DNA from: Microthyrium microscopicum
Taxonomy: Eukaryota
Length of the DNA stretch: 64,000 bases
Assembly: GCA_010405405.1 (NCBI GenBank)
Contig: MU004231.1
Location: 3,094,401-3,158,400 of the forward strand
Reading direction: 5' to 3'
Part shown: in pieces, positions 15,431 through 31,401 of the stretch
Position numbering within the stretch: the first letter of the stretch is position 1
How the letters are laid out: every line of letters begins with the position of its first letter
Position numbers and translations under genes: made by a program
The notes under the pieces: generated by a model
What the model saw: the letters and a program-made list of their open reading frames with translations, nothing else
What the model was told of the DNA's origin: nothing
Database searches by the model: none

Positions 15431-17209
15431 TCAGGCGTTGAACAACATCCGAACGGCTACAAGGTCCAGGAAGTAGAAGATCTGGTCTGTTCAGCAAAAG
15501 TCTAATTCTTCATAGTTGCATCAGAACTTACGCCTGAGAGATAATATGGCAAGCCTTGCATGCATTACTGAAGTTAGCTTTGTGATATTTCAGAGAGCAA
15601 CCAGTGAAAACAATTTACAGGAGAGGTATTGCAACACACAAGGCCAAGCTGTAGATGAGCGGCAAAGTTACACCTAGGCGACGGGCTCTAAGAAAAGCAA
15701 ACTCACCCATTGCTGATCCCCCAAAGTGAATCCCCTGACTCCATGCAACTGTCATCAGAGGTAATCCGAGGCAAGTCCCTAAAGTTCGCAATATCATAAC
15801 AATAGAATAGTCATTTGCATGAGCCTCTTGATTGCTATCCGCGATCGTGGGTGATCTCACCAAAGACATGGTAAAAACGGGTAATGCTGATCCTGCAGCA
15901 TACAAAATAAGTGCTAAGCGAGAATTAGCTCCTTCATTGCGACTTTGGGAAGATGATGGAACATGGTAACAGTTGCCAAGTCTTAACAGACAGTCCCACT
16001 AATGCAGCTCCAAGAACGGAGAAGGATATGCTAGCTGCCGCTCCAATGATATTTGTAGTAGTCCCTTCAGTGGTCTGTTTGGAGAGATACCGTATAGATG
16101 TAGGTACCACTATGGTTAACAAAATAACATTTATGACGGCCTTGACTGAAAGTAGATATCCCGCGTCAGAGAGTGTCCAACCATAGCGCTTCGAGATATA
16201 TTGAGCTAACAGTGGAGTGTTTGAGCTTGCTAATGATGCGAGGAAGAACACTGACAGAAGCAGTCGGAACCTTGGTCTTTTGAAGGCCTGCATAACTTTT
16301 CTAAGGTCCGAAATAATGCGAGCTGTAAAGGAAGCTACATCCTCCTTAGGTGCATCCCGGGCGCCGGAATTTTGGCCGAGCAGCGGCTCGACTTGACTTG
16401 ATGCCGCGGTGTTCTCTTCAGAGTCCGTAAACTCGTGCGATTGATCTGGCAAGGACCGTGCTATCAGCATAGCTACCAGAAGAGAAGACATCCCGATGAC
16501 AAATGGAAACCAGATAGACCAAGCCATGGTAGTTGCAGCAACAGTTGGTCCAAGTATTGAACTTATATAAGAAATGGAACTCATGTATGCGAACCACGAA
16601 GCCCTGTACATGTTAGTGGTGCTTGTGGCGTATGACTCGTCAAATACCATTGAACATTATTGGTAGTTAGTTCCGTAATGTACGTCGCCATGACTGTGTT
16701 CAACACACAATCGCCTCCACCAAATAGCGATAAGAAAGGAGCGATGAGCATAGCACCAATTGGGAATGTAGCTCTTGCATAGCCTACCACCAAGAGCCAA
16801 GAATACATCAGTGCTAGACCTCCAACATTGAAGCATAAAAACAGTTTTCTGAAGCCTCGATCGGACAACGCAGCATAGGGGATTGTGACAATCAGATCTG
16901 AGGTCGTCAGCTCACTTCATAGCCTCTGCAGGAATGCCCAGTACCGCAGAGAACGTGGAGCGTCTCGACAGCTCCTTGAAGCCAGGCTAGCTGCTGCTGA
17001 ATCATGTCTAGTTTGCATAGGTGCTCCGGGATATCGAGCCCATCTTTGCTGATTAAAGGGTCATGCTGATCATAATAGTCGAAGCAATATCGAGCTTCTA
17101 TGAGCCTGTTGAGCGCGAGGCTGATGATCCGAATGCTGAGATTCTGAAGCCCCAGTATCACCAGAAGAGTACCCAAAGCTTTCAGCCTCTTACGATCAGA
17201 AAGTGCCAT
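15431..17209 (-). CDS. MFS transporter, ustT-like efflux pump
   Basis: Exons from ORFs 16907..17278, 16581..16868, 15934..16650 and 15615..15905, plus micro-exons GLPYYLSG and IFYFLDLVAVRMLFNA* (stop 15431). Loop 'RLIEARYCFDYY..DP..IPEHLCK..IQQQLAWLQG' and 'LSDRGFRK', 'GGG', 'QYISKRYGW' are typical of this MFS subfamily. Alternative ATG at 17233. Confidence 0.85.
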
Positions 17210-17730
17210 GGGAACAATTGTTGATCGTTGCATGGAGTTGCTGTATTTCAAGGCGTTTGATGCCAAGGCTCTGACCAAACGCGCGTCACACGCGTCGCTT
17301 CAAGCTTGGCGTCAAATATCACTAGCGTATGGGTACGGTAACGGATAAGATAAGACTCCCGTCTTGTGGCGTATCATCTCATCCGCTATAAATACTCCAG
17401 GTCCTCCATTTGTGTTCTCTATTTCTCCTCAATTACAATCGCGTAAAACTCATTTGCTGTGCTCTCGCTCAGTATCTTGGAACATATGTACCCCATCGCC
17501 GTTTCTATGCCATTTTGGCATCTAGATTGCTATGATCGCTGTCCGTACAATGCTTACCTCGTGTCTCTTACGTCTTGAGTATCATTGGATGACGGGTAGA
17601 CCGCATAGCCTTCTGGTCACCTGATTATCATGAAAGGACCAAAAAAGCGTGCAATTCTGATATGGCAACTTCAGAAGTTATTGGCTGTGTTCATCTAGAA
17701 TTGACCACGTGACCAATAGCTCCTGCGATT

Positions 17731-17882
17731 TGTTGTAAGAATATAAGAAATAAAGCGTGGTTAATTACTATGGGAGTCTAAGGGCCTAATATAGTTTTTA
17801 GGATACGCTAATTAGAGGATTATATTATTCCTAATTAGGTCTTATAATTATCTAATCTCTTAGTATATTTTTTATTATAATA
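17731..17882 (-). repeat. 3' LTR (left copy)
   Basis: 152-bp direct repeat of 28719-28870. About 28 differences, all transitions. Adjacent to the polypurine tract. Confidence 0.95.
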
Positions 17883-17891
17883 TTCTCCCTT
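17883..17891 (-). promoter_or_regulatory. Polypurine tract (plus-strand priming site)
   Basis: Minus strand reads AAGGGAGAA immediately before the left LTR, fixing the element orientation as minus. Confidence 0.7.
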
Positions 17892-17979
17892 ACTAGTATA
17901 AACTCTCTTAAGATTATAAATCCTATAGTTATAGCTTTAATAAATAAGTAAAATAAAAAGAATATTATAATAACTAATA

Positions 17980-18072
17980 GGAGGAGTAGTATAGTGGTAG
18001 TACTTACGATCTCGTGGCAGGCCCTACCTGCTTAAAATTCGTAGGGCATAGGTTTAATTCTTGTCTCCCCCA
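17980..18072 (+). tRNA. RIP-degenerated tRNA-like gene (pseudo-tRNA) with intron-like insert, inside the retrotransposon; isotype unresolved
   Basis: Acceptor GGAGGAG/CTCCCCC + A; D arm GTAT-AGTGGTA-GTAC (A box); anticodon stem TACGA/TCGTA enclosing a GCAGG/CCTGC hairpin; T arm ATAGG-TTTAATT-CTTGT (ACAGG-TTCGATT-CCTGT before RIP). All stem defects are C>T or G>A. Confidence 0.75.
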
Positions 18073-20339
18073 CTACCCTAAAAAGGTAATCGTTACTTAC
18101 TTTTAAAGCTATATTTACCCTTTTTTAGGGAAGGTTATCCTTTCCTTTTTAGTAAGTATAGAGGATAAGCTATAGCTCTTTTTAATACGTTACGGAAGGT
18201 ACAAATTTTTGTATTACGTAATTACTATATATAGCTATAAGATTATCCTTATTAAAGCCCTACTAACTAATAATAGACTAGCGTTAAATTATATAATTAG
18301 AAACTAGCTACGCAAAGCTATACTAAAATAAGCTATAATACTACTAAAGCGTAGTAAAATTAGCATACTAAGATAACTCTTTTATAGCTCTTAGCAACTA
18401 GATTGAAGGATTGGCCCTAGCTTAGTAAGCTTGAAATCTAGCCGCGTAAGGCAAGATTAGACTAAATGACATAGTAGTAAATTACGATATCTAGGAACAC
18501 TACGGCTTAGTAAGTATAGTACCTATAGGTTAGTATAAACGGCGCTATAGGATAAGTTAGTAGACTTAGGGGAGGTAACCTAGAATACGCTGAGCTAAAG
18601 GACCCTAGATCTTGGCTTAAAAGCAAAGTACAGCGTAGCAGATAGCCCTTAGTAGACTAACGGCGCTGCCTTAGATTTAGTATTTAACGGCAAGAATGGA
18701 GGGATCTAACATAATAATAAGGAAGGAATCTTGGCCCCTTGGGGGACGACAATATTAGCAACTTTAAGAACTTGAAGTAGTGAACTAAACGGAAGAATAA
18801 TAACTTGTAATGGATACTAGCCTAGAGAGGTGTTACGGTTGGATACTACCTAGAATTTGGCTCTCCTAACCCACTAATGCTTCTATGGCTTGGGAAGCTA
18901 ATGGGGCTTAGCATAGTATTAATAGCCTTAGTATGGATTAGTCTACGGAATATAATAGCGAGGTTTTCCCTTATATAGTTAGCGCCTCAGTTTGCTAAAC
19001 ATGTAGGGATTAGCTAAAGCTAGACTAGGCCTTAGGTCTAGAGTGAGCTAGCTTAGCTAGATTTGGGTAGATTAGCTAATTAGATAAAAGTTTTTACCCG
19101 CTTATTAAGAGTAGCGTCTACATAGCCCATTAGCGTAGCTAAAAGACAATAAACAAGATTTAATAATATAATAACTAATAAGGAACCTTTACTTAAAACT
19201 TAGGACTATTGCCCTAGTTATACTATAAAATAATCTTTAAGAAGTTATTTTCTTAAAATCTTCCTTAAGATCTAGGTTAAACTATTATAAATAATATTTA
19301 GACGTTTATAGTTCTTAATCTTTTTAGAAAGATTTATTTATATAAAGACTATTAGTAATAATAAATTAAAGAATTATAAGAAGTTTATATAAGCGTATTA
19401 AAGCTACTTAATCTAATAAAAAATATATATAACTTATATTCTAAGGCTTTAAAGAATAAAGTTCGTAAGAAGTAATATATAGGTAGTAATAAAGAACTAG
19501 GTAGTAATTACTAGTTTAAGTAAATATAAAATAGAGGCTTAATCCTATATCTATAAAGTTTTATAATTTATTATCTTCTCTTTTTCTTCTTTATTATACT
19601 TTTATAATACTTTAAGTTAGTAAAAGTAGATTCTCTTTTATACTTTTAATATTATTAAGTATAAATAGCTTTATATATTCCTCTTCTTTAATTCTTAATT
19701 CTTTTTAAGCTCTTAATTATAAGAGCTCTTTAAAATAGCTTTTTATACTAAGCTAACTACGTTACTTTTAAAAATACCTAAAAAGCATAGTACTTACTCT
19801 TAAGTTTCTTAAGCTTAGCGTAATTAAGCTAAATCTTTATAATAAGTTCTAAATTCTACTACTTAGCTTTTAAGTTTAGTTACTTAACCTTATTCTAAAG
19901 AACGTCTATAATTATTTATAAATATACTTAAGCATTTATCTTCTCTAACTAAGGCTTATAGCTAATAAGATAGTATATTAAGATTCCTAAGTATAAGGAA
20001 TAATAATAACTACTTTTCGCCTCTTCTAGCTAGATTTAGTTATTAATAGAGTATTAGCTATCTAAATTCTTCTCTTAAAGAAGCTTACTAGTAGTTTTCT
20101 ATAAGTTACTATAATGTTAATTCTAAAACAAGATAATCTTATAAATAATTACTTATATTTAGACTATATTCTCTAGTTCTAAAAAGTAAGTTCTTTTACT
20201 AATAAAAGTTAGCTTATAAGTAAGCTACTTAAGAAATACCTAAATAAAAGGTAGGTTTTACTAAGAAGAATACTTTAATATAGGTAATATTTTAATAACT
20301 CTAAGAAATAAGTCTCTTAAATTAAAATAAGATTAAGCT

Positions 20340-21330
20340 ATTTATAATATTTAGTACTTATATTACTAATATTTTTAGTCTAGACTATAACTTCTTAAAT
20401 ACTATATTACTTAACTTTATATAAATATATATAAAGTAAGATATAATATATTTTTAAGTTTAAGTAATAAAAGATATACTCTAATATATTTAGAATAGTT
20501 TAATACGTTCTAAAATAATTTTATACTAAGTTATTAATTAAGAGTATAGCTAAAGCTACTACTATTATATAATACCTAAGCTAAAGTAAACTTATAGTAT
20601 TTCTTAAGTATATAAATATATAGTTAGTAAGACTAGCTTCTTAACTATTCTTAAAAATAAACTAGAATATATTAAGTCTTTAAGTAAAGAAAAGATAAAG
20701 ATACTATTATATTAGCTTATAAAGAAGTAAAGTAATACGTATAAGACTTTACCTAAGTCTTAAATTAAAGTAGAGCCTAGTTTAAGTTATTATTTAGCTC
20801 TCTTAAAAAAGCTTAATAAGTAGATTTATAAGTATTTACTTAATAATATAGCTTATACTATAGTAAGTAATTAATTAATTTACTTAAACTATTAGCTATA
20901 GATATATAAAAAGAAGACTTAGGATAAGCTTATTTAGGTCCTATAAAATCTTTAGAATTAAAGAGTTAAAATTCCTTAAGAGATCTTAGTATTACTTAAA
21001 TACTACGTTAAGTATAGTTTTACTTAGATTAAGCTAGCTATTATAGTAATAACTAACTTATTATCTAGTAATAATAAGCTATAAGAAGCTATAACTTATA
21101 TTTAGAGTTACTAACCTAACTAGCGTTATAAGAAATATAAATACTACTATATACTTAAGCTTTTAAATAAGGAAGTTATTATTTAGTATAATTATATAGT
21201 CTTCTAAGATATAAAGGGCAATTTTATATTTAATAAGGCTTATATAAATTATACCTTAAATAGTAAATAAGATTACTTATTTATAATAAAGAAGATAAAT
21301 ATAAGTACTATATAATTAATATAAGTAATT
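20340..21330 (+). pseudogene. RIP-destroyed accessory ORF antisense to gag/pol with DUF3716-like Cys motif
   Basis: Frame of 20581 restores R-C-x-x-C (21124-21138), C-V-V-F (21193-21204) and A-C-x-N-C-A-L-N-G-K-x-D-C-S-F (21238-21282) when TAT/TAC are read as TGT/TGC. The stops are TAA/TAG, as expected from RIP. Ends approximate. Confidence 0.55.
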
Positions 21331-21849: not shown

Positions 21850-24800
21850 AAAAGGTTAATTTTTCTTTTTTTTCTTATAAATATTTTACTTATATCTATA
21901 TATAAGATAATCTCTTATTTAGGAGTAGCCTTTTATTATCTCTATTCTAATTTTAAATATTATAAACTAGTACTAAGGCGTATAAAACTATTAAGTATTA
22001 TAGTTAGCCTAAATATATTAGTATTCTATAAAAATCCTTTAGTTATATCTATTTTTTATAGTAAACTAAGTTTAGAGTAATTTATAAAAAGAACCTTTAC
22101 TTTTTTAATATCTAATAATAAAGAGTTAATATCCTAATAGCTTTCTTTAGAATTAGATACCTATTTATATAGATTTATTACTTTTAATATAAGCGTATAG
22201 ATAATTAAGGTAGTAATTTTATTATAGCTCCTTAGCTTTAATAATTTATCTTCTTACTCTTATTATTCTAGTAATATAAAGATTAATTCTTAATCTACTA
22301 TAGCTAGAAGGATTTTCTTCCTTACTAAGCTTTAATTTAAAAAGATAAGAATATTATTATTCTTTTTCTTTACTAAATCTTATAGTATTATAGAATATTC
22401 TATTTCTTATATAATTTACTTTATTTACTCTAAATTGCCTTATATTAAAGCTAGAATTAAATTAAGAAGAATATATTCTAATATTATAGAAGTCTCTAAG
22501 TTACTACTTAGATTATAGATAGTTACTATAAGATATTTCTTTTCTTATTTATAAATACCTACTTTAGCTTTCTAAACTTTTCTTATAAAGTTAAAAAAGA
22601 TAATAAATAAACTTAAGTAATATTTCTTAGTACTAAACCTCTTAATATTAATTAACTCTACTAAAAGGTTTCTTAATTTATTAAGCTAGTTTTTCTTAGT
22701 TATAGTAAATATATTTATTTTATTTTTATACTCTTTATTTAGGATACTTTTAAGGTTATCTTTACTTAGTTATTTATACTTAAAGTATAGCTAATTTTAG
22801 TAATAATATTTATTTTCTTCTTATATATATATTTATATAAAGTAATTTCTATAGATAAGGTTTTTAAGTACTTTTCTATTAAGTATCTTAAAAGCGTATA
22901 TTTTTAAAAAGTAAGTCTTTAAGACTTTATAAAAGTTAAACTATACTACTTAAAACTTAGTTTTATTTAAGTTTTTAAAGAGTATATAAAAACTTATAGA
23001 GAACTTAATAATAAAGTTCTTTTTTAAAATTATATTACTATTAATAAAGTTTAAGGCTATAGCTTATTTTAATAAAGTATTATAATAGACTTATTTAATA
23101 GTTTTAACTTTCTCTAAGTAATCTTTAGTAATTATATAAATAGAAAATATAATACTAGTTAATTTAGCTTATTTATTTTCCTTTACTTAGCTTATTTTAA
23201 AGTTTTTAGAATCTCTTTTATAAATAAAAAAAAAGGAGATATTCTTAATATAATATAAGCTTATACCTTAGTAGTATAAACTACTTAATCTAAGTATAGA
23301 TTCTAGCTAGCTATAAGTTTTTCTTTTAAGAACTTAGTTAAGAATATACCTAGTAAGCTATTAAATCTCTTAATCTTCTTATTAAACTAGGAGTTATATA
23401 GAGCTATTAAATAGTACTTAGTCTTTATCTATTATAATAAAAATAAAATTATATTTAAAATAAACTAAGGTTTATTATCTAAAGTTAATAATTAAGAAGA
23501 ACTATATTTTAAAATAATTTTCTTATAAATAAATTCTATAACTATAGAAATAATAGTATTTAGTACTACTTTTATAATAAACTATCCTATAATATAATTA
23601 ATTATATAGATAATATACTAGTTTTTAAAAAGACTCTATAAAAGTTTATTAATTAAGTTAATTCTCTAAGCCTTAAATAGCTATAGGTTTTATACTTAAT
23701 AGTAGGACTTATATTTAAGCTTACTTTAATTTATCTATTAAACTTAATATATAAAATAGAACTTAGTAAATTTTTAAAAGTTATTCTTTATTTCTAGCTA
23801 CTAATCCTTTAGTTTAAAGATACTAGTAAGGCTTATATATAATAAGTACTTATACTAATTATATATTTTCTTAATAAGGTCTTAATAGTAGAAAGAATAA
23901 ATATAAAATAAACTAGTAAGTATCTTTATTTTAATAGAATCTATCTTTAAGAATAAATATTTATATTTCTTTTTAATATTACTATTAAGATTAATCTAAA
24001 AATAATTAAGAATACTTTTCTAAAGCCTTTTCTATATACTAATAAAGATAGTATAATTTTTCTTTTCTAATACTTTTTATAAGTCCTATATATAGAGAAT
24101 TTCTTATCTTTTTTACTCTTATAAAGATTTTAATAAAGTAGCTTATATCTTAAAAGATAAATTATTATTACTATTTTTAAGCTTTATTTCCTAAATAGTA
24201 TTAATCTATTCTTCTTAAAAGTTTAAGTAGTAATTAAGAATATTAAGAACTACTACTTAGGAACTCTTATAATATATAAAAATAAGATTAAATTCTTAGA
24301 ACTCTTTAATTTATTAAGTAATATATTAAGTATTATTCTTAATTATATTTATATACTATAAGCTATTATAATTTATAATTATTTTAGTAGTCTTTTCTAA
24401 AAAGTAGTATTAGTATTTTCTAATTATATTCTTAACTATAAGAAGCTCTTTCTTATATACTAGATAGTTAAGTTTAGCTTTATTTAGCTTATAGCTATTA
24501 AAAGTAACTAAGTACTATTTATTTTAGTTATTTTCTTATACTAGCTTATAACTAATTATATAATTTAAAGTATTTATTTAAAGCTTTATAGACTTTTATA
24601 AATTATATATTACTAAGATAGATAATAAAATTAATAGAGTCTTAATTCTATTAAAAGCTATAGTATATTAATAAGTCTAAGTAATAAAGTAGTACTTCTT
24701 TTTTCTAATATTTAGATTAGCCTTCTTTAAGAAATTAAAAATAAAAGTAGTAATCTTAATAAAGTTCTTAATATACTACTAATAGTATAAAGTAAAACTA

Positions 24801-27500
24801 AGAAATTAATATACTTTATATATATTCTTAAGTATAAGCTAGAACTTAATTAAGATAGTCTTTTTATATAAAGATTAGATTTACTAACCTTCTACTTTAT
24901 AGCTATAGAATTTAATCTTCTTAACTTTAAAGATATATTTATTAAGATAAGTATAAAGCTTATTATTTTAAAGAATCTTTAGAACCTAAGTAATATACTT
25001 ATAATATTTCTTTATAGTATCTAAGTAAATAATAATATTATCTAGGTAAATAACTATATAGATTAATAAAAAGAGCTAAAAAAAAATATTTATTATATAT
25101 TAAAAAAATAATAGTATATTTATTAATCTAAAAGATATAATAAGAAACTTATACTTCCTAAACTTAGTATTAAAAGCTATTTTCTTAATATTTTTTTCTA
25201 CTATATAGACTTATTAATAGCTTAATAAGAAGTTAAGCTTAAAGAAGAATCTTACTCTATTAATAGTATTAAGATACTTATTAATTTATAGTAAGAAATA
25301 AGTATCCTTATATATAACTATATTAAGTAAATAGTAGTTAATATATATTCTTTATTTTTCTCTTAGCTTTAATATAAATAAGATAAAGAAACTCTAAGAA
25401 CTTTCTAAGACTCTAATAAGTTCTTTAATAAATAGTTCTTAAATCTACTTTTCTTACTCTTCTAATTATAGATTAGATATTTAATAATAAGCCTAATTAT
25501 AAAGAGAGGCATCTTTTATAAAGATTTTATAATTAAACTTAGAATATAGAAAAAGTTTAGAAAGAGTATAATAAAAAGACTTATAGTAATTATTTAAAAG
25601 TTTTTATATACCTTTATCTTTTAAAGTAAGTTTATTAATATTAAAGTTATTAATTATTAAAAGGATATTAAGCTATTTTTATATTCTATAAATTAGCTAA
25701 AAAATATCTTTAACTTTATCCTTTATTCTTTTTACTCTATTTTAAAGTACTTAAAAGATTATATAAAGAAAGCTAGCTATAAACTACTTTATTTATTTTA
25801 GATAGCTTCTTTTATTCTAAAGAAACTCTACCTAGCGTCCTATAATAAGCTTATAAGTATAAAAGCCTTTTAAGCGTTACTTTATAAGCTTAATTTACTC
25901 TATTATTTAATTAATTTATAGATTATATAACTAGAACTATAAGAGTCTAAAAATAACATTAAGATTAAAGATATCTAGGATATAAGCCTTAAAGTAGCTA
26001 TAAAAAGTCCTAATATAATAAGATAAATAAATTCTAAAGGAAGTTATAACTATATAGCTATTTATAAAAATAACTTCTTTCTCTAGAATAAGTATTATAA
26101 AAGCTTTAAGTTTCTTAATAATTTTTTAACTAATATAAATAGAGTTAGTTTCTAAGTTTAGAAAAGCTATAGTCTTAATAAAATAATTTTTATAATATAA
26201 GTAAATAAGTAAACGTAAGAGAGTATTATTATATCTACTTATATAGTTAAGAAAAGCTTATTAGTTATTATATAAATAAGTAGAGTATTCTAGTTCTAAG
26301 CTAGAAAATTCTTATTTATCTTCTAGTAATAATAGTTTTTTAAACCTTATTATTACTAGTTAAGCTTTTTATAATTTATAGTATAGTAGCTAAGTTTACT
26401 ATAATTTTAATACTTAAGTTTAGAGTTATTTATAAAAGCTTTTCTACTTTTAAAGTCCTTTTTATAAAAGAGCTATAACTTCTTATTAAAGTTAAATTTC
26501 TTAGAGTATTAAGTATTATATTATCCTTTAAGATAATAACTATAGCTATTTATAGTATTAAGCTACCCTAAATTATTATTATTTAACTTAAGCTTATTAT
26601 TAGTATAACTATTACTACTAACTTCTTTAAAATATTCTTTAGAATTAATATCTAGAATAGGCTCTTTATTTTCCTTAAAACTAGAGAAGATTTTATTAAG
26701 CTATTTTAGCTTATAAGTATTATAAATATTACGTATATTTTTATAAAAGTCTATATTATATTTAATAATCTCTTATTTAAAGACTAAAATATTAACTATA
26801 AGATTAAAAATAGTACTATATTTATACTTAGCTTTAAGAATAACTTATTCTTTAAAGCCTTCTTAGATTTAGATACCTATTTTATAATTAATAAATATAA
26901 GATTTATTTAAGTTTATAGAATATAAAAATAATAAATAAATTTTTTAGTAAATAAAACCTATAATATATAATCCTACTAAATACTAACCTTAAGTATATC
27001 TTTTTTAATACTAAATATAGATTAAAAATAAATAAAGAAGTAAAATAAACTTTTAAGTATTTTAAACTCTTTAATAGCCTATTACTAAGCTAAGTTAGCT
27101 TATAAAAGACGTTACTTAATAGAGAGATATTTTTTAACCTTAGTAATTTTTTACTACTTAAGTAGAATAGAATCTAATAGAAGAATATCCTTACTAGCCT
27201 TAAAGGTATAAAGAAGGCTCTTAGCTTAAATATTATATTTACTTAGTTTCTTAAAGAATAAATTATTAAGAAGTATCTTAAACTTAGTTAAATATTATCT
27301 TTATTCCTAAGGAACGTCTCTTATTATCTTAATAAGTTTTTAAGAACTAAAAATTTAGAAAAGTAATTTAATAGTCTTATCTAACTTCTTACTTAGCTTT
27401 CTTATAAGATCTAGGTAAGTAATACCTATTTATAAAGTTTCTTAAGTTAAAGTCTAAGTTTAAATATAAGCCTTAATTTTATTTATTTAGTAATTTTAAA
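21850..27500 (-). pseudogene. gag-pol relic of the Ty3/Gypsy element
   Basis: De-RIP readings: CxxCGKxGHxxxxC; AFLDSGA; SPWGFPILFVPKPGGKWRMCIDYR...VMPFGLTNAP...YLDD; WGIDLIG...AIDYATGW...TSDNGPQF...YNPQSNGKIERFNG...SPFFL; W-F-G-P-Y. The frame seems to continue ~300 codons past GPY. Both ends approximate. Confidence 0.9.
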
Positions 27501-28671: not shown

Positions 28672-28716
28672 GGTTTATTATCTAAAAGTCCTAATTAAAT
28701 TAAATTATTACTACTA
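28672..28716 (-). promoter_or_regulatory. Primer-binding site, probably initiator tRNA-Met, apparently extended
   Basis: Starts 2 nt inside the 5' LTR: TAGTAGT.. (TGGTAGC before RIP), followed by RIP-compatible matches to the TTTCGAT and GACCTCCGGGTTATGAGCC complements of tRNA-iMet (tRNA sequence recalled from memory). Confidence 0.6.
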
Positions 28717-28718
28717 AA

Positions 28719-28870
28719 TATTATAAGAATATAAGAAATAAAGTATAGTTAATTACTATAAGAGTCTAAGAACCTAATATAGTTTTTAGGATATGCTAAT
28801 TAGGGAATTATGTCATCCTTAATTAAGTCCTACGATTATCTAATCCCTTGGCATGTTCTTCATTACAACA
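28719..28870 (-). repeat. 5' LTR (right copy)
   Basis: 152-bp repeat ending TTACAACA, followed by TSD CGATT. Confidence 0.95.
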
Positions 28871-29543
28871 CGATTGTATGTTTTTATATCACATATTACA
28901 ATGTTAATCAGCCCGCTCCGTGTTCGGGTGTGATTCATGCTTGATCAAATTAGTCTTATCTTAACCAGTTAGCAAGCGACATATGGTCTGCTTGATTCCA
29001 CTGACCGTGCCTTGTGCCAGGAAGAGCCAGCGAGGAAACCTTTTGTCCACACTGCCACAGTTGACCGCCCGAAGAAGTTTTGGCTGCGACATGCTCCAAT
29101 ACTTTACTCCCAAAGGGCGATCTTTTGAAATAGGTGCTCTGACACTGTGATGAGCTTCACTAAACTTCTCGCCACAAGCTCTAGTGGTACTCTTCCACCG
29201 GTGTTGTTTACAGTTCCCTCAATGGCCGCATCCCATTCGAAATAAGGGTGAGGGTGACTGTGCCCATGGAGAACGCACTTTGCTGCACATCATCCAGTCA
29301 GGCTTTAGCTTTTGCTGCGCGGCCTTGTGGCCAATCTGGATTGAAATTCTTTCAATCGCCTACCATGGTTAATAACTGCGGCTTCGGGCCTGGCAACCGC
29401 TCGTAGCCAATATCATTCCTCTCAAGAAGCGTGTCCTGCTGTCCTTGACTTGCGTGTCCTGCTGTCCTTGCTTTACATTGGAATCTTAACTTATTTCTCG
29501 ATTCACGAAAGCTACAGGCTTCCATCCCGTTCCGTTGCGCATC

Positions 29544-30532: not shown

Positions 30533-31401
30533 CTAGACACTTCCTTTGACGCGCTTGACCATTTTCAAGGATGCATCTTTGGCGCAGCTTCTCAAAGTTA
30601 GCCTTCAATAATCAATTTAGGTGCCTGACTTACAGCACAACACTCAGTCCCGCAGTCTGAGGGCAATCCTTGACAGCTAGATTGTCATCGTCCTTCATAT
30701 ACCAATGTGCACCTGTGTCACATGTATGAGGTCCTGATAGGCGGTCAGTTCTGGTTTTGCTCCATTTGTTTCGATCCCCAAGGCAGGATCTGAGAGCAAC
30801 TCACGGCACATAGCCTCAGTGCAGGTGCTGCCAAATTGGCCCCCAGCACCTTTGAGCATAACACCGCTGTCGTAAAATGGGCACTCTGTTCCATGGCAGT
30901 TGATGTTAGAGCCATCAAACCATACTCTGCCATTCTTGACAGAGTACTCAATTTGCAGAATGCCGTGTGACCAGTGGCTGGAATCAGGGTCACGGCTAAT
31001 CTTGATTGAAGTACCATCACCTCCTCCTAGCTCCTTTAAGCGCTCCTGGTACATGTTGTTTTGAGATATTCCAGCAGGAGCAAGAGTGCTCAAAGGTGGC
31101 TCTGGTCTGCCCTTACCGCCTGGGAAATGGTCAGTCATAATGCATATGATGCTAGCACTACTCGGAACCTACCATCAATGCTCTTCAAGTATACTGGATA
31201 GTCGCAACGATTGATTACCGCAATCAAGCCAGTTTCGCCTATTTCATAATCAGATGTTTTGTCATGATTTGTGTAAGGTCTCAGATGCTCACCACCAGCT
31301 ACGCTAAAATTTCCCGAAATAGAAGTTTTGCCTTGAACTGCGAGGTCAATGGCCGAAACCGTTGCTGCTGCAGCTAAGATGAGAGCAGTAGTGAAATGCA
31401 T
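30533..31401 (-). CDS. Secreted Bys1-family (thaumatin-like fold) Cys-containing protein
   Basis: Signal peptide MHFTTALILAAAATVSA; VINRCDYPVYLKS, GTSIKIS, ILQIEYS, VWFDGSNINC, CPF, and spliced C-terminus DDDNLAVKDCPQTAGLSVVL|C. Four exons with canonical introns; stop at 30533. Confidence 0.8.

Follow-up and report, generated by a model that had tools for sequence, protein, structure and literature searches.

A probable tRNA-headed, SINE-like retroposon nested in a RIP-mutated Ty3/gypsy element of the ascomycete Microthyrium microscopicum

Short interspersed nuclear elements (SINEs) of ascomycetes that derive from tRNA, such as AfuSINE2, Mg-SINE, Foxy and EGH24/Eg-R1, are described in the sections of PMC5063351 used here as non-coding units that begin with a tRNA head carrying A and B boxes, have target duplications of variable length up to 14 bp and presumably depend on long interspersed nuclear elements (LINEs) of the Tad and I clades. 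In the same sections described fungal SINEs span 140–900 bp; for AfuSINE2 of Aspergillus fumigatus, target duplications of 4–14 bp are given, the tRNA part has an annotated CCA end in some rows, and the 3′ region resembles a LINE of the Tad clade. For birds, 10.1101/081950 proposes that a SINE gained its head through a template switch to a tRNA; in PittSINE, treated there, and in the U6-L1 chimeras, a small RNA polymerase III (Pol III) RNA stands at the 5′ end of a product of target-primed reverse transcription, between target duplications. We compare with these systems an insert found in 64,000 nucleotides of Microthyrium microscopicum DNA (assembly GCA_010405405.1, contig MU004231.1, positions 3,094,401 to 3,158,400 of the forward strand), a stretch referred to below as the window, whose own numbering is used for all positions. 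A tRNA-like cloverleaf lies here inside a Ty3/gypsy long terminal repeat (LTR) retrotransposon heavily altered by repeat-induced point mutation (RIP). We conclude, with a probability of roughly 80%, that this cloverleaf is the 5′ head of a 1187-nt tRNA-derived, SINE-like non-LTR retroposon (17980–19166, plus strand) inserted antisense in the 3′ untranslated part of the gypsy element.

The insert shares with the ascomycete tRNA SINEs its tRNA head with A and B boxes at the start, its lack of coding capacity, a target duplication within their range and the presumed dependence on a LINE. It differs from them in its length, in a 22–23-nt intron-like insertion in the head, in the T-runs of its body and in its heavy load of RIP mutations; the LINE-like 3′ tail of AfuSINE2 has no demonstrated counterpart in it. 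With the U6-L1 chimeras and PittSINE it has in common the small Pol III-type RNA at the 5′ end and the flanking target duplication, and the template-switch model of such chimeras accounts for the start at tRNA position 1 and possibly for a CCA after the head; unlike them, it belongs to a repeated family and is not a single event. The insert belongs to a known kind, the ascomycete tRNA-derived SINE-like retroposons, and its nesting in a RIP-mutated LTR element is ordinary. Its length and the intron-like insertion in the head are unusual.

The insert is delimited by a flanking 14-nt repeat, by empty-site joints in other gypsy copies and by its RIP indices. The left target-site duplication, TATAATAACTAATA, occupies 17966–17979 (plus strand) and ends exactly at position 1 of the tRNA-like head; the right copy, at 19167–19180 (plus strand), repeats all 14 nt. 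With one mismatch the duplication extends to 19 nt (left copy 17961–17979, 18 of 19 alike). A third exact copy of the 14-mer stands on the minus strand at 26259–26272, in the gypsy interior, and is most likely a product of low complexity in RIP-saturated DNA. Since this third copy exists in AT-rich DNA, Markov simulations trained on the gypsy element were run: a repeat of at least 14 nt ending at this fixed position and recurring 100–3000 nt downstream arose in 13 of 2000 (~0.007). At 886 control positions inside the same AT-rich element, a control that also allows for the third copy, there was no repeat of at least 14 nt. The GC fraction of the insert is 0.37, against 0.18 in the rest of the gypsy element, and its RIP index, (CpA+TpG)/(ApC+GpT), is 0.47, against 0.01, which marks the insert as a unit apart whose history differs from that of the element.

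The insert is non-coding. It contains no open reading frame of at least 80 aa (the longest open frame is 50 aa), and its six frames have no match in Pfam. A search of its body against Rfam at E-values up to 1 returned only a sub-threshold chance match (16.5 bits against a required 37.8). No terminal inverted repeats were seen by eye at its ends, no tandem repeats occur in it, and BLASTN of the insert against the window finds only the insert itself.

Contigs of public sequencing runs were aligned to a 4.4-kb stretch around the insert. Among the runs used are X1, X2 and X3; X2 and X3 come from one organism (organism A), and X5 comes from another (organism B), sequenced in another study. A contig of X3 and X2 joins 17965 directly to 19167, skipping 1201 nt, with 14 letters that fit both sides, from which it follows that the gypsy family exists without the insert. 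Further contigs of X3, X2 and X5 join 17979 to 19205–19277 with diverged letters between, and these correspond to the RIP-variable stretch after the repeat. Gypsy copies that lack the insert and hold the 14-mer once thus exist in two organisms, as classical empty sites. The exact-match contig may stem from a gypsy paralogue or from another allele of the locus; in both cases the insert is a discrete mobile unit.

The same contigs place the insert in a repeat family. Over the 4.4-kb stretch their similarity is 80–99%, and nearly all differences are transitions (659 places in X1, against 40 with transversions). Summed contig depth over 17976–19151, relative to the single-copy flank at 16800–17681, is about 11-fold in X1, 13.5-fold in X3 and 9-fold in X2, ratios that are our own means over eight bins and are not copy numbers. 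In one X1 contig (43 differences in 329 positions) the head continues directly into the body, with a length difference of 59 nt at 18311–18369, so that head and body are joined in other copies too. Internal length variants occur besides, in which other copies of the insert lack 58–102 nt at 18311–18369, 18429–18491, 18443–18544 or 18521–18598; short direct repeats are present in this region (18311–18598).

Whether the family also lies outside gypsy copies bears on the preliminary description of this locus, which had held that dispersed copies with target duplications of their own would mark an ordinary tRNA-derived SINE. The duplication was found at this locus; dispersal shows only as a few contig ends with unlike flanks. 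Contigs of organism B cover 17978–18159, 18453–18610, 18599–19002 and 18917–19145. The match of the first of these stops at 17978, and its 53 further letters are unlike the gypsy flank, which in organism B aligns well in that organism's own empty-site contigs; this is modest evidence for an insert copy in another context. At the other end, three X3 contigs run on unlike after 19174 with a mutual agreement of 0.68, which suggests differing 3′ flanks. When metagenomes were scanned for a 21-nt pattern taken from the intron, no relatives were found; the two matches were both chance hits in GC-rich, coding-looking contigs without a tRNA.

The head itself (17980–18072, plus strand) is covered end to end by the Rfam tRNA model RF00005 (model positions 1–71 of 71), at 40.1 bits on the raw sequence against a gathering score of 29 (E = 5.2e-05, with the 64-kb window as search space), and is the sole gathering-level Rfam match in the window. 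In the covariance-model alignment all four arms are paired: the acceptor stem at 17980–17986 and 18065–18071, with one non-standard pair (A3 with C70); the D arm, GUAU/AGUGGUA/GUAC, at 17989–18003; the anticodon stem, UACGA/UCGUA, at 18005–18009 and 18039–18043; and the T arm, AUAGG/UUUAAUU/CUUGU, at 18048–18064, with G-U pairs in its stem. The discriminator is an A at 18072. The folding energy of the head is no better than that of shuffled sequences (z = -0.85; equalled or bettered by 35 of 200 shuffles), so that it is the covariance model which carries the tRNA likeness. An A-box-like motif, TAGTATAGTGG, at 17987–17997 (plus strand) fits 10 of 11 positions of TRGCNNAGTGG, which we take to be the A-box consensus. 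The B-box-like motif, GGTTTAATTCT, at 18051–18061 (plus strand) departs by three transitions from GGTTCGANTCC, presumably the B-box consensus, and one of these falls at C56, a position important for TFIIIC binding. A contig of another copy has GGTTCGATT here.

As a gene, the head is degenerate. ARAGORN in its default mode calls no tRNA; when introns are permitted, it reports tRNA-Phe(AAA), placing a 22-nt intron at the odd position 31/32, and the AAA reading relies on a RIP-made A run that is missing from another copy of the family. An intron at 37/38 would leave C33 and U37 in the anticodon loop, where tRNAs have U33 and a purine at 37. The canonical 7-nt loop after intron removal and the intact B box of a functional nuclear tRNA gene are both lacking.

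The anticodon loop measures 29 nt (18010–18038, plus strand) where 7 is usual. It holds the intron-like insertion of 22 nt, seen as 28 inserted or loop letters in the covariance alignment and as the 22-nt intron of ARAGORN, and the hairpin GCAGG-CCCTA-CCTGC at 18017–18031, which appears in the minimum free energy fold. Directly after the discriminator comes C-T-A (18073–18075, plus strand), and a TTTT run follows at 18101–18104 (plus strand). Most of what the preliminary description saw in the letters is borne out here: the four paired arms, the hairpin, the non-canonical anticodon register, the C-T-A, the T-run, and an antisense position about 100 bp from the 3′ LTR, measured as 97 nt. Its view that the stem defects are RIP-type transitions gains support from a less mutated copy in the contigs. 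One X3 contig departs from the alignment at 18030 and continues for 30 letters that, aligned manually, differ from the window by transitions only, plus one extra G; five X1 contigs have the same extra G at 18035. In this less mutated copy the T loop reads GGTTCGATT, a canonical B-box core, the 5′ strand of the T stem is ACGGG and the 3′ strand of the anticodon stem is CCGCA.

The same copy has GAGA in place of the A run of the window's anticodon loop, and, judged by eye, this GAGA could pair with TCTC of the loop. In eukaryotic pre-tRNAs the 3′ part of the intron pairs with the anticodon loop. A true tRNA intron in the head is plausible on these letters, not proven. The C-T-A is compatible with a CCA after one CpA to TpA change; by our estimate [C/T][C/T]A is expected in about 8% of random triplets at this composition.

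The insert is a repeated, non-coding unit that begins at tRNA position 1, so that a Pol III-type head with its A and B boxes forms the very 5′ end; it has its own duplication of AT-rich target and is missing from the empty sites in X3, X2 and X5. This is how a LINE-mobilised SINE of tRNA origin is built. We infer Pol III transcription, a LINE partner and a template-switch origin, which would act as follows. Master copies would be transcribed by Pol III from the internal A and B boxes of the head, and the RNA would be copied into the genome by a Tad/I-type LINE reverse transcriptase through target-primed reverse transcription, a process expected to leave long target duplications of variable length. 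The head probably arose by a template switch of the LINE enzyme onto a tRNA precursor. After insertion the copy would have been mutated by RIP. The copy in the window is most likely inert, as a promoter and as a TFIIIC site, because its B box carries three transitions.

Several observations weigh against this reading, beyond the contig depth that cannot be taken as a copy number. SINEs are conventionally shorter than about 700 bp, though length is a convention and not a mechanism. At 1187 nt the insert also exceeds the 900 bp reached by the fungal SINEs named in the sections of PMC5063351 used here. This copy has eight sense-strand runs of at least four T, the first 29 nt after the tRNA and one of six T at 18121–18126, at which Pol III would terminate far short of the 3′ end if they are not products of RIP. 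Of the eight, six are followed by an A and would be shortened by just one T had this T formerly been a C, so that RIP is not an obvious source of the runs. The 3′ end is no more than A-rich, 27 of its last 60 nt being A, without a clear poly(A) or simple repeat, and the 64-kb window contains no LINE. The broken loop rules (C33, U37) make the head a pseudo-tRNA, and dispersal outside gypsy copies is supported by only the few loose ends described above. The insert could also be composite, a short SINE plus something else, of which only the outer duplication is seen. On account of the length, the T-runs, the A-rich end and a partner LINE that is only presumed, we write ‘SINE-like’ rather than ‘SINE’.

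The length and the eight T-runs, which sit badly with a full-length Pol III transcript, would be accommodated by a chimeric retrocopy, in which a LINE reverse transcriptase working on an RNA of about 1.1 kb switched to a tRNA precursor and the product was multiplied by other means, such as Pol II read-through transcripts, segmental duplication or carriage inside gypsy copies. The long 14-nt duplication is typical of target-primed reverse transcription and would fit, as would the start exactly at tRNA position 1 and the C-T-A after the discriminator; template switching onto tRNAs is moreover what the part of 10.1101/081950 consulted here proposes for SINE heads. We nevertheless think this history distinctly unlikely. 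Diverged contigs cover all parts of the insert at 9–14 times the summed depth of single-copy DNA, in two organisms, and repeated amplification of one chimera is what a SINE family is. The contig of organism B that leaves the match at 17978 with an unlike flank also speaks against it.

Very little speaks for the tRNA unit as an intrinsic module of the LTR element, a captured pre-tRNA or a Pol III promoter or insulator, as the preliminary description had it. Cassandra, a plant terminal-repeat retrotransposon in miniature (TRIM), carries 5S rRNA units in its LTRs, where they belong to every copy, and this locus resembles it in having a Pol III-type gene inside an LTR retroelement. The head does lie between two LTRs with matching CGATT duplications, so that it moved with or after the gypsy element, and it is RIP-mutated as a repeat would be. 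Unlike the Cassandra units, however, it lies outside the LTR, 97 nt inside the internal region; the 1201 nt are missing from other gypsy copies that hold the 14-mer once, the insert has a 14-nt duplication that adjoins the tRNA 5′ end exactly, and its RIP level of 0.47 stands against 0.01 in the rest of the element. What is seen is a nested insertion and not a module; the ‘SINE head’, which the preliminary description had named as its alternative, is what held. A resident host tRNA gene beside which a gypsy element landed, with RIP leaking from the repeat, would suit the head's place at the edge of the AT-rich block and the targeting of Pol III genes by yeast Ty3/gypsy elements, and is hardly credible for a head that lies inside the CGATT duplication, the polypurine tract and the 3′ LTR, not outside them, and that is part of a multi-copy 1.2-kb unit.

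The host element is the exception in a window that is otherwise ordinary ascomycete DNA of about 48% GC: one block of 15–25% GC at about 17.9–28.8 kb. This block is a minus-strand Ty3/gypsy LTR retrotransposon that was inserted in one piece. It has paired LTRs, TG...CA ends, a 5-bp duplication, a polypurine tract and the RNase H of pol. The 3′ LTR (17731–17882) and the 5′ LTR (28719–28870), both of 152 nt on the minus strand, form a direct repeat 82% identical; BLASTN of the LTR against the window finds these two only. Read on the minus strand, the LTR starts TGTTGTAA and ends TTACAACA, each end being intact in one of the two copies, with 8-nt terminal inverted repeats. The target duplication CGATT is found at 17726–17730 on the left and matches CGATT at 28871–28875 on the right. 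The polypurine tract, GTAAGGGAGAA, lies at 17883–17893 (minus strand) and abuts the 3′ LTR.

In a six-frame Pfam search with RIP-made stops read as X, RNase H was found at 24326–24661 on the minus strand (RT_RNaseH_2, E = 1.1e-11; RT_RNaseH, E = 3.1e-09); it was the only gypsy domain up to an E-value of 10, reverse transcriptase, integrase and gag being no longer detectable. The RIP index of the element, 0.01, is near saturation, against 1.43–1.46 in the flanks. In its TG...CA ends, terminal inverted repeats, 5-bp duplication, polypurine tract and RT-linked RNase H the element is like the Ty3/gypsy elements of filamentous ascomycetes. It departs from the class in being long, at 11.1 kb overall, of which about 9.5 kb separate the 5′ LTR from the SINE-like insert, and in that only RNase H is detectable after RIP. 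Two weak contig joints in the gypsy interior, 19326 to 20341 (skipping 1014 nt) and 19975 to 20410 (skipping 434 nt), with sides of only 21–22 letters, hint at further nested inserts or length variants.

Some features of the LTRs are recorded here in their own right. Contigs of X3 and X2 join the LTR end at 17882 back to the LTR start at 17731, a return of 152 nt; two LTRs of this family therefore abut head to tail somewhere in the genome, either in a tandem array or in what is left of a two-LTR junction. The two LTRs of the element are mirror images in their RIP damage, G and C being kept in the half that faces the flank and lost in the half that faces the interior, from which we take it that RIP fades over about 80 nt at both repeat edges. 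The minus-strand letters just after the 5′ LTR (28690–28718) begin TTTAGTAGTAAT and, read from the letters, may represent a primer-binding site of the TGGTAG... type altered by RIP, presumably that for initiator tRNA-Met. These letters have no specific match to the 3′ end of the embedded tRNA, the fit being as loose as with any RIP-mutated A/T string. An origin of the head from strong-stop DNA, which consists of the tRNA primer plus the complement of U5, was considered for this LTR and rejected: the sequence after the C-T-A is unlike the LTR, which BLASTN matched at the two LTRs only. The gypsy element sits between an MFS-transporter-like gene (15934–17299, minus strand) and a gene of the Bys1 family (30695–31168, minus strand), Bys1 being the yeast-phase-specific protein of Blastomyces. 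Both flanks are without a RIP signature.

The nested SINE-like retroposon implies an order of events: the gypsy element would have inserted first, making the CGATT duplication, the retroposon would then have entered its 3′ region, and RIP would have mutated both. RIP has altered the insert less than the gypsy element, so the insert probably came in when that element had already undergone RIP, and then passed through fewer rounds of it.

The origin of the head allows a more specific idea. In fungi tRNA ends are processed and CCA is added first, and splicing follows later in the cytoplasm, where LINE particles form. The family may have been founded by a LINE reverse transcriptase that switched onto an end-matured, CCA-tailed, unspliced pre-tRNA. 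Such a founder would explain the start at mature position 1, the retained intron of 22–23 nt and the C-T-A afterwards; we regard it as speculative and rather unlikely. The CCA-tailed pre-tRNA, which the preliminary description had proposed as captured by the retrotransposon, may thus hold only for the origin of the SINE family and not for the LTR element. A limited literature search returned nothing relevant on SINE heads from intron-containing tRNAs, and is too thin a basis for claiming their absence.

What first appeared as a tRNA gene carried by an LTR element is corrected here to a nested, SINE-like insertion with its own duplication. For annotation, the result is a tRNA-headed repeat family of 1.2 kb in this ascomycete and a relative, and the locus provides a dated order of gypsy element, retroposon and RIP acting on both. 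An unspliced pre-tRNA with matured ends is the founder that the intron-like insertion, together with the possible CCA, would indicate. If that is true, the family would be long enough for RIP to catch, unlike short SINEs, its head would be, to our knowledge, the first SINE head from an intron-bearing precursor, and it would preserve in the genome, as a fossil, the order in which fungi process their tRNAs.

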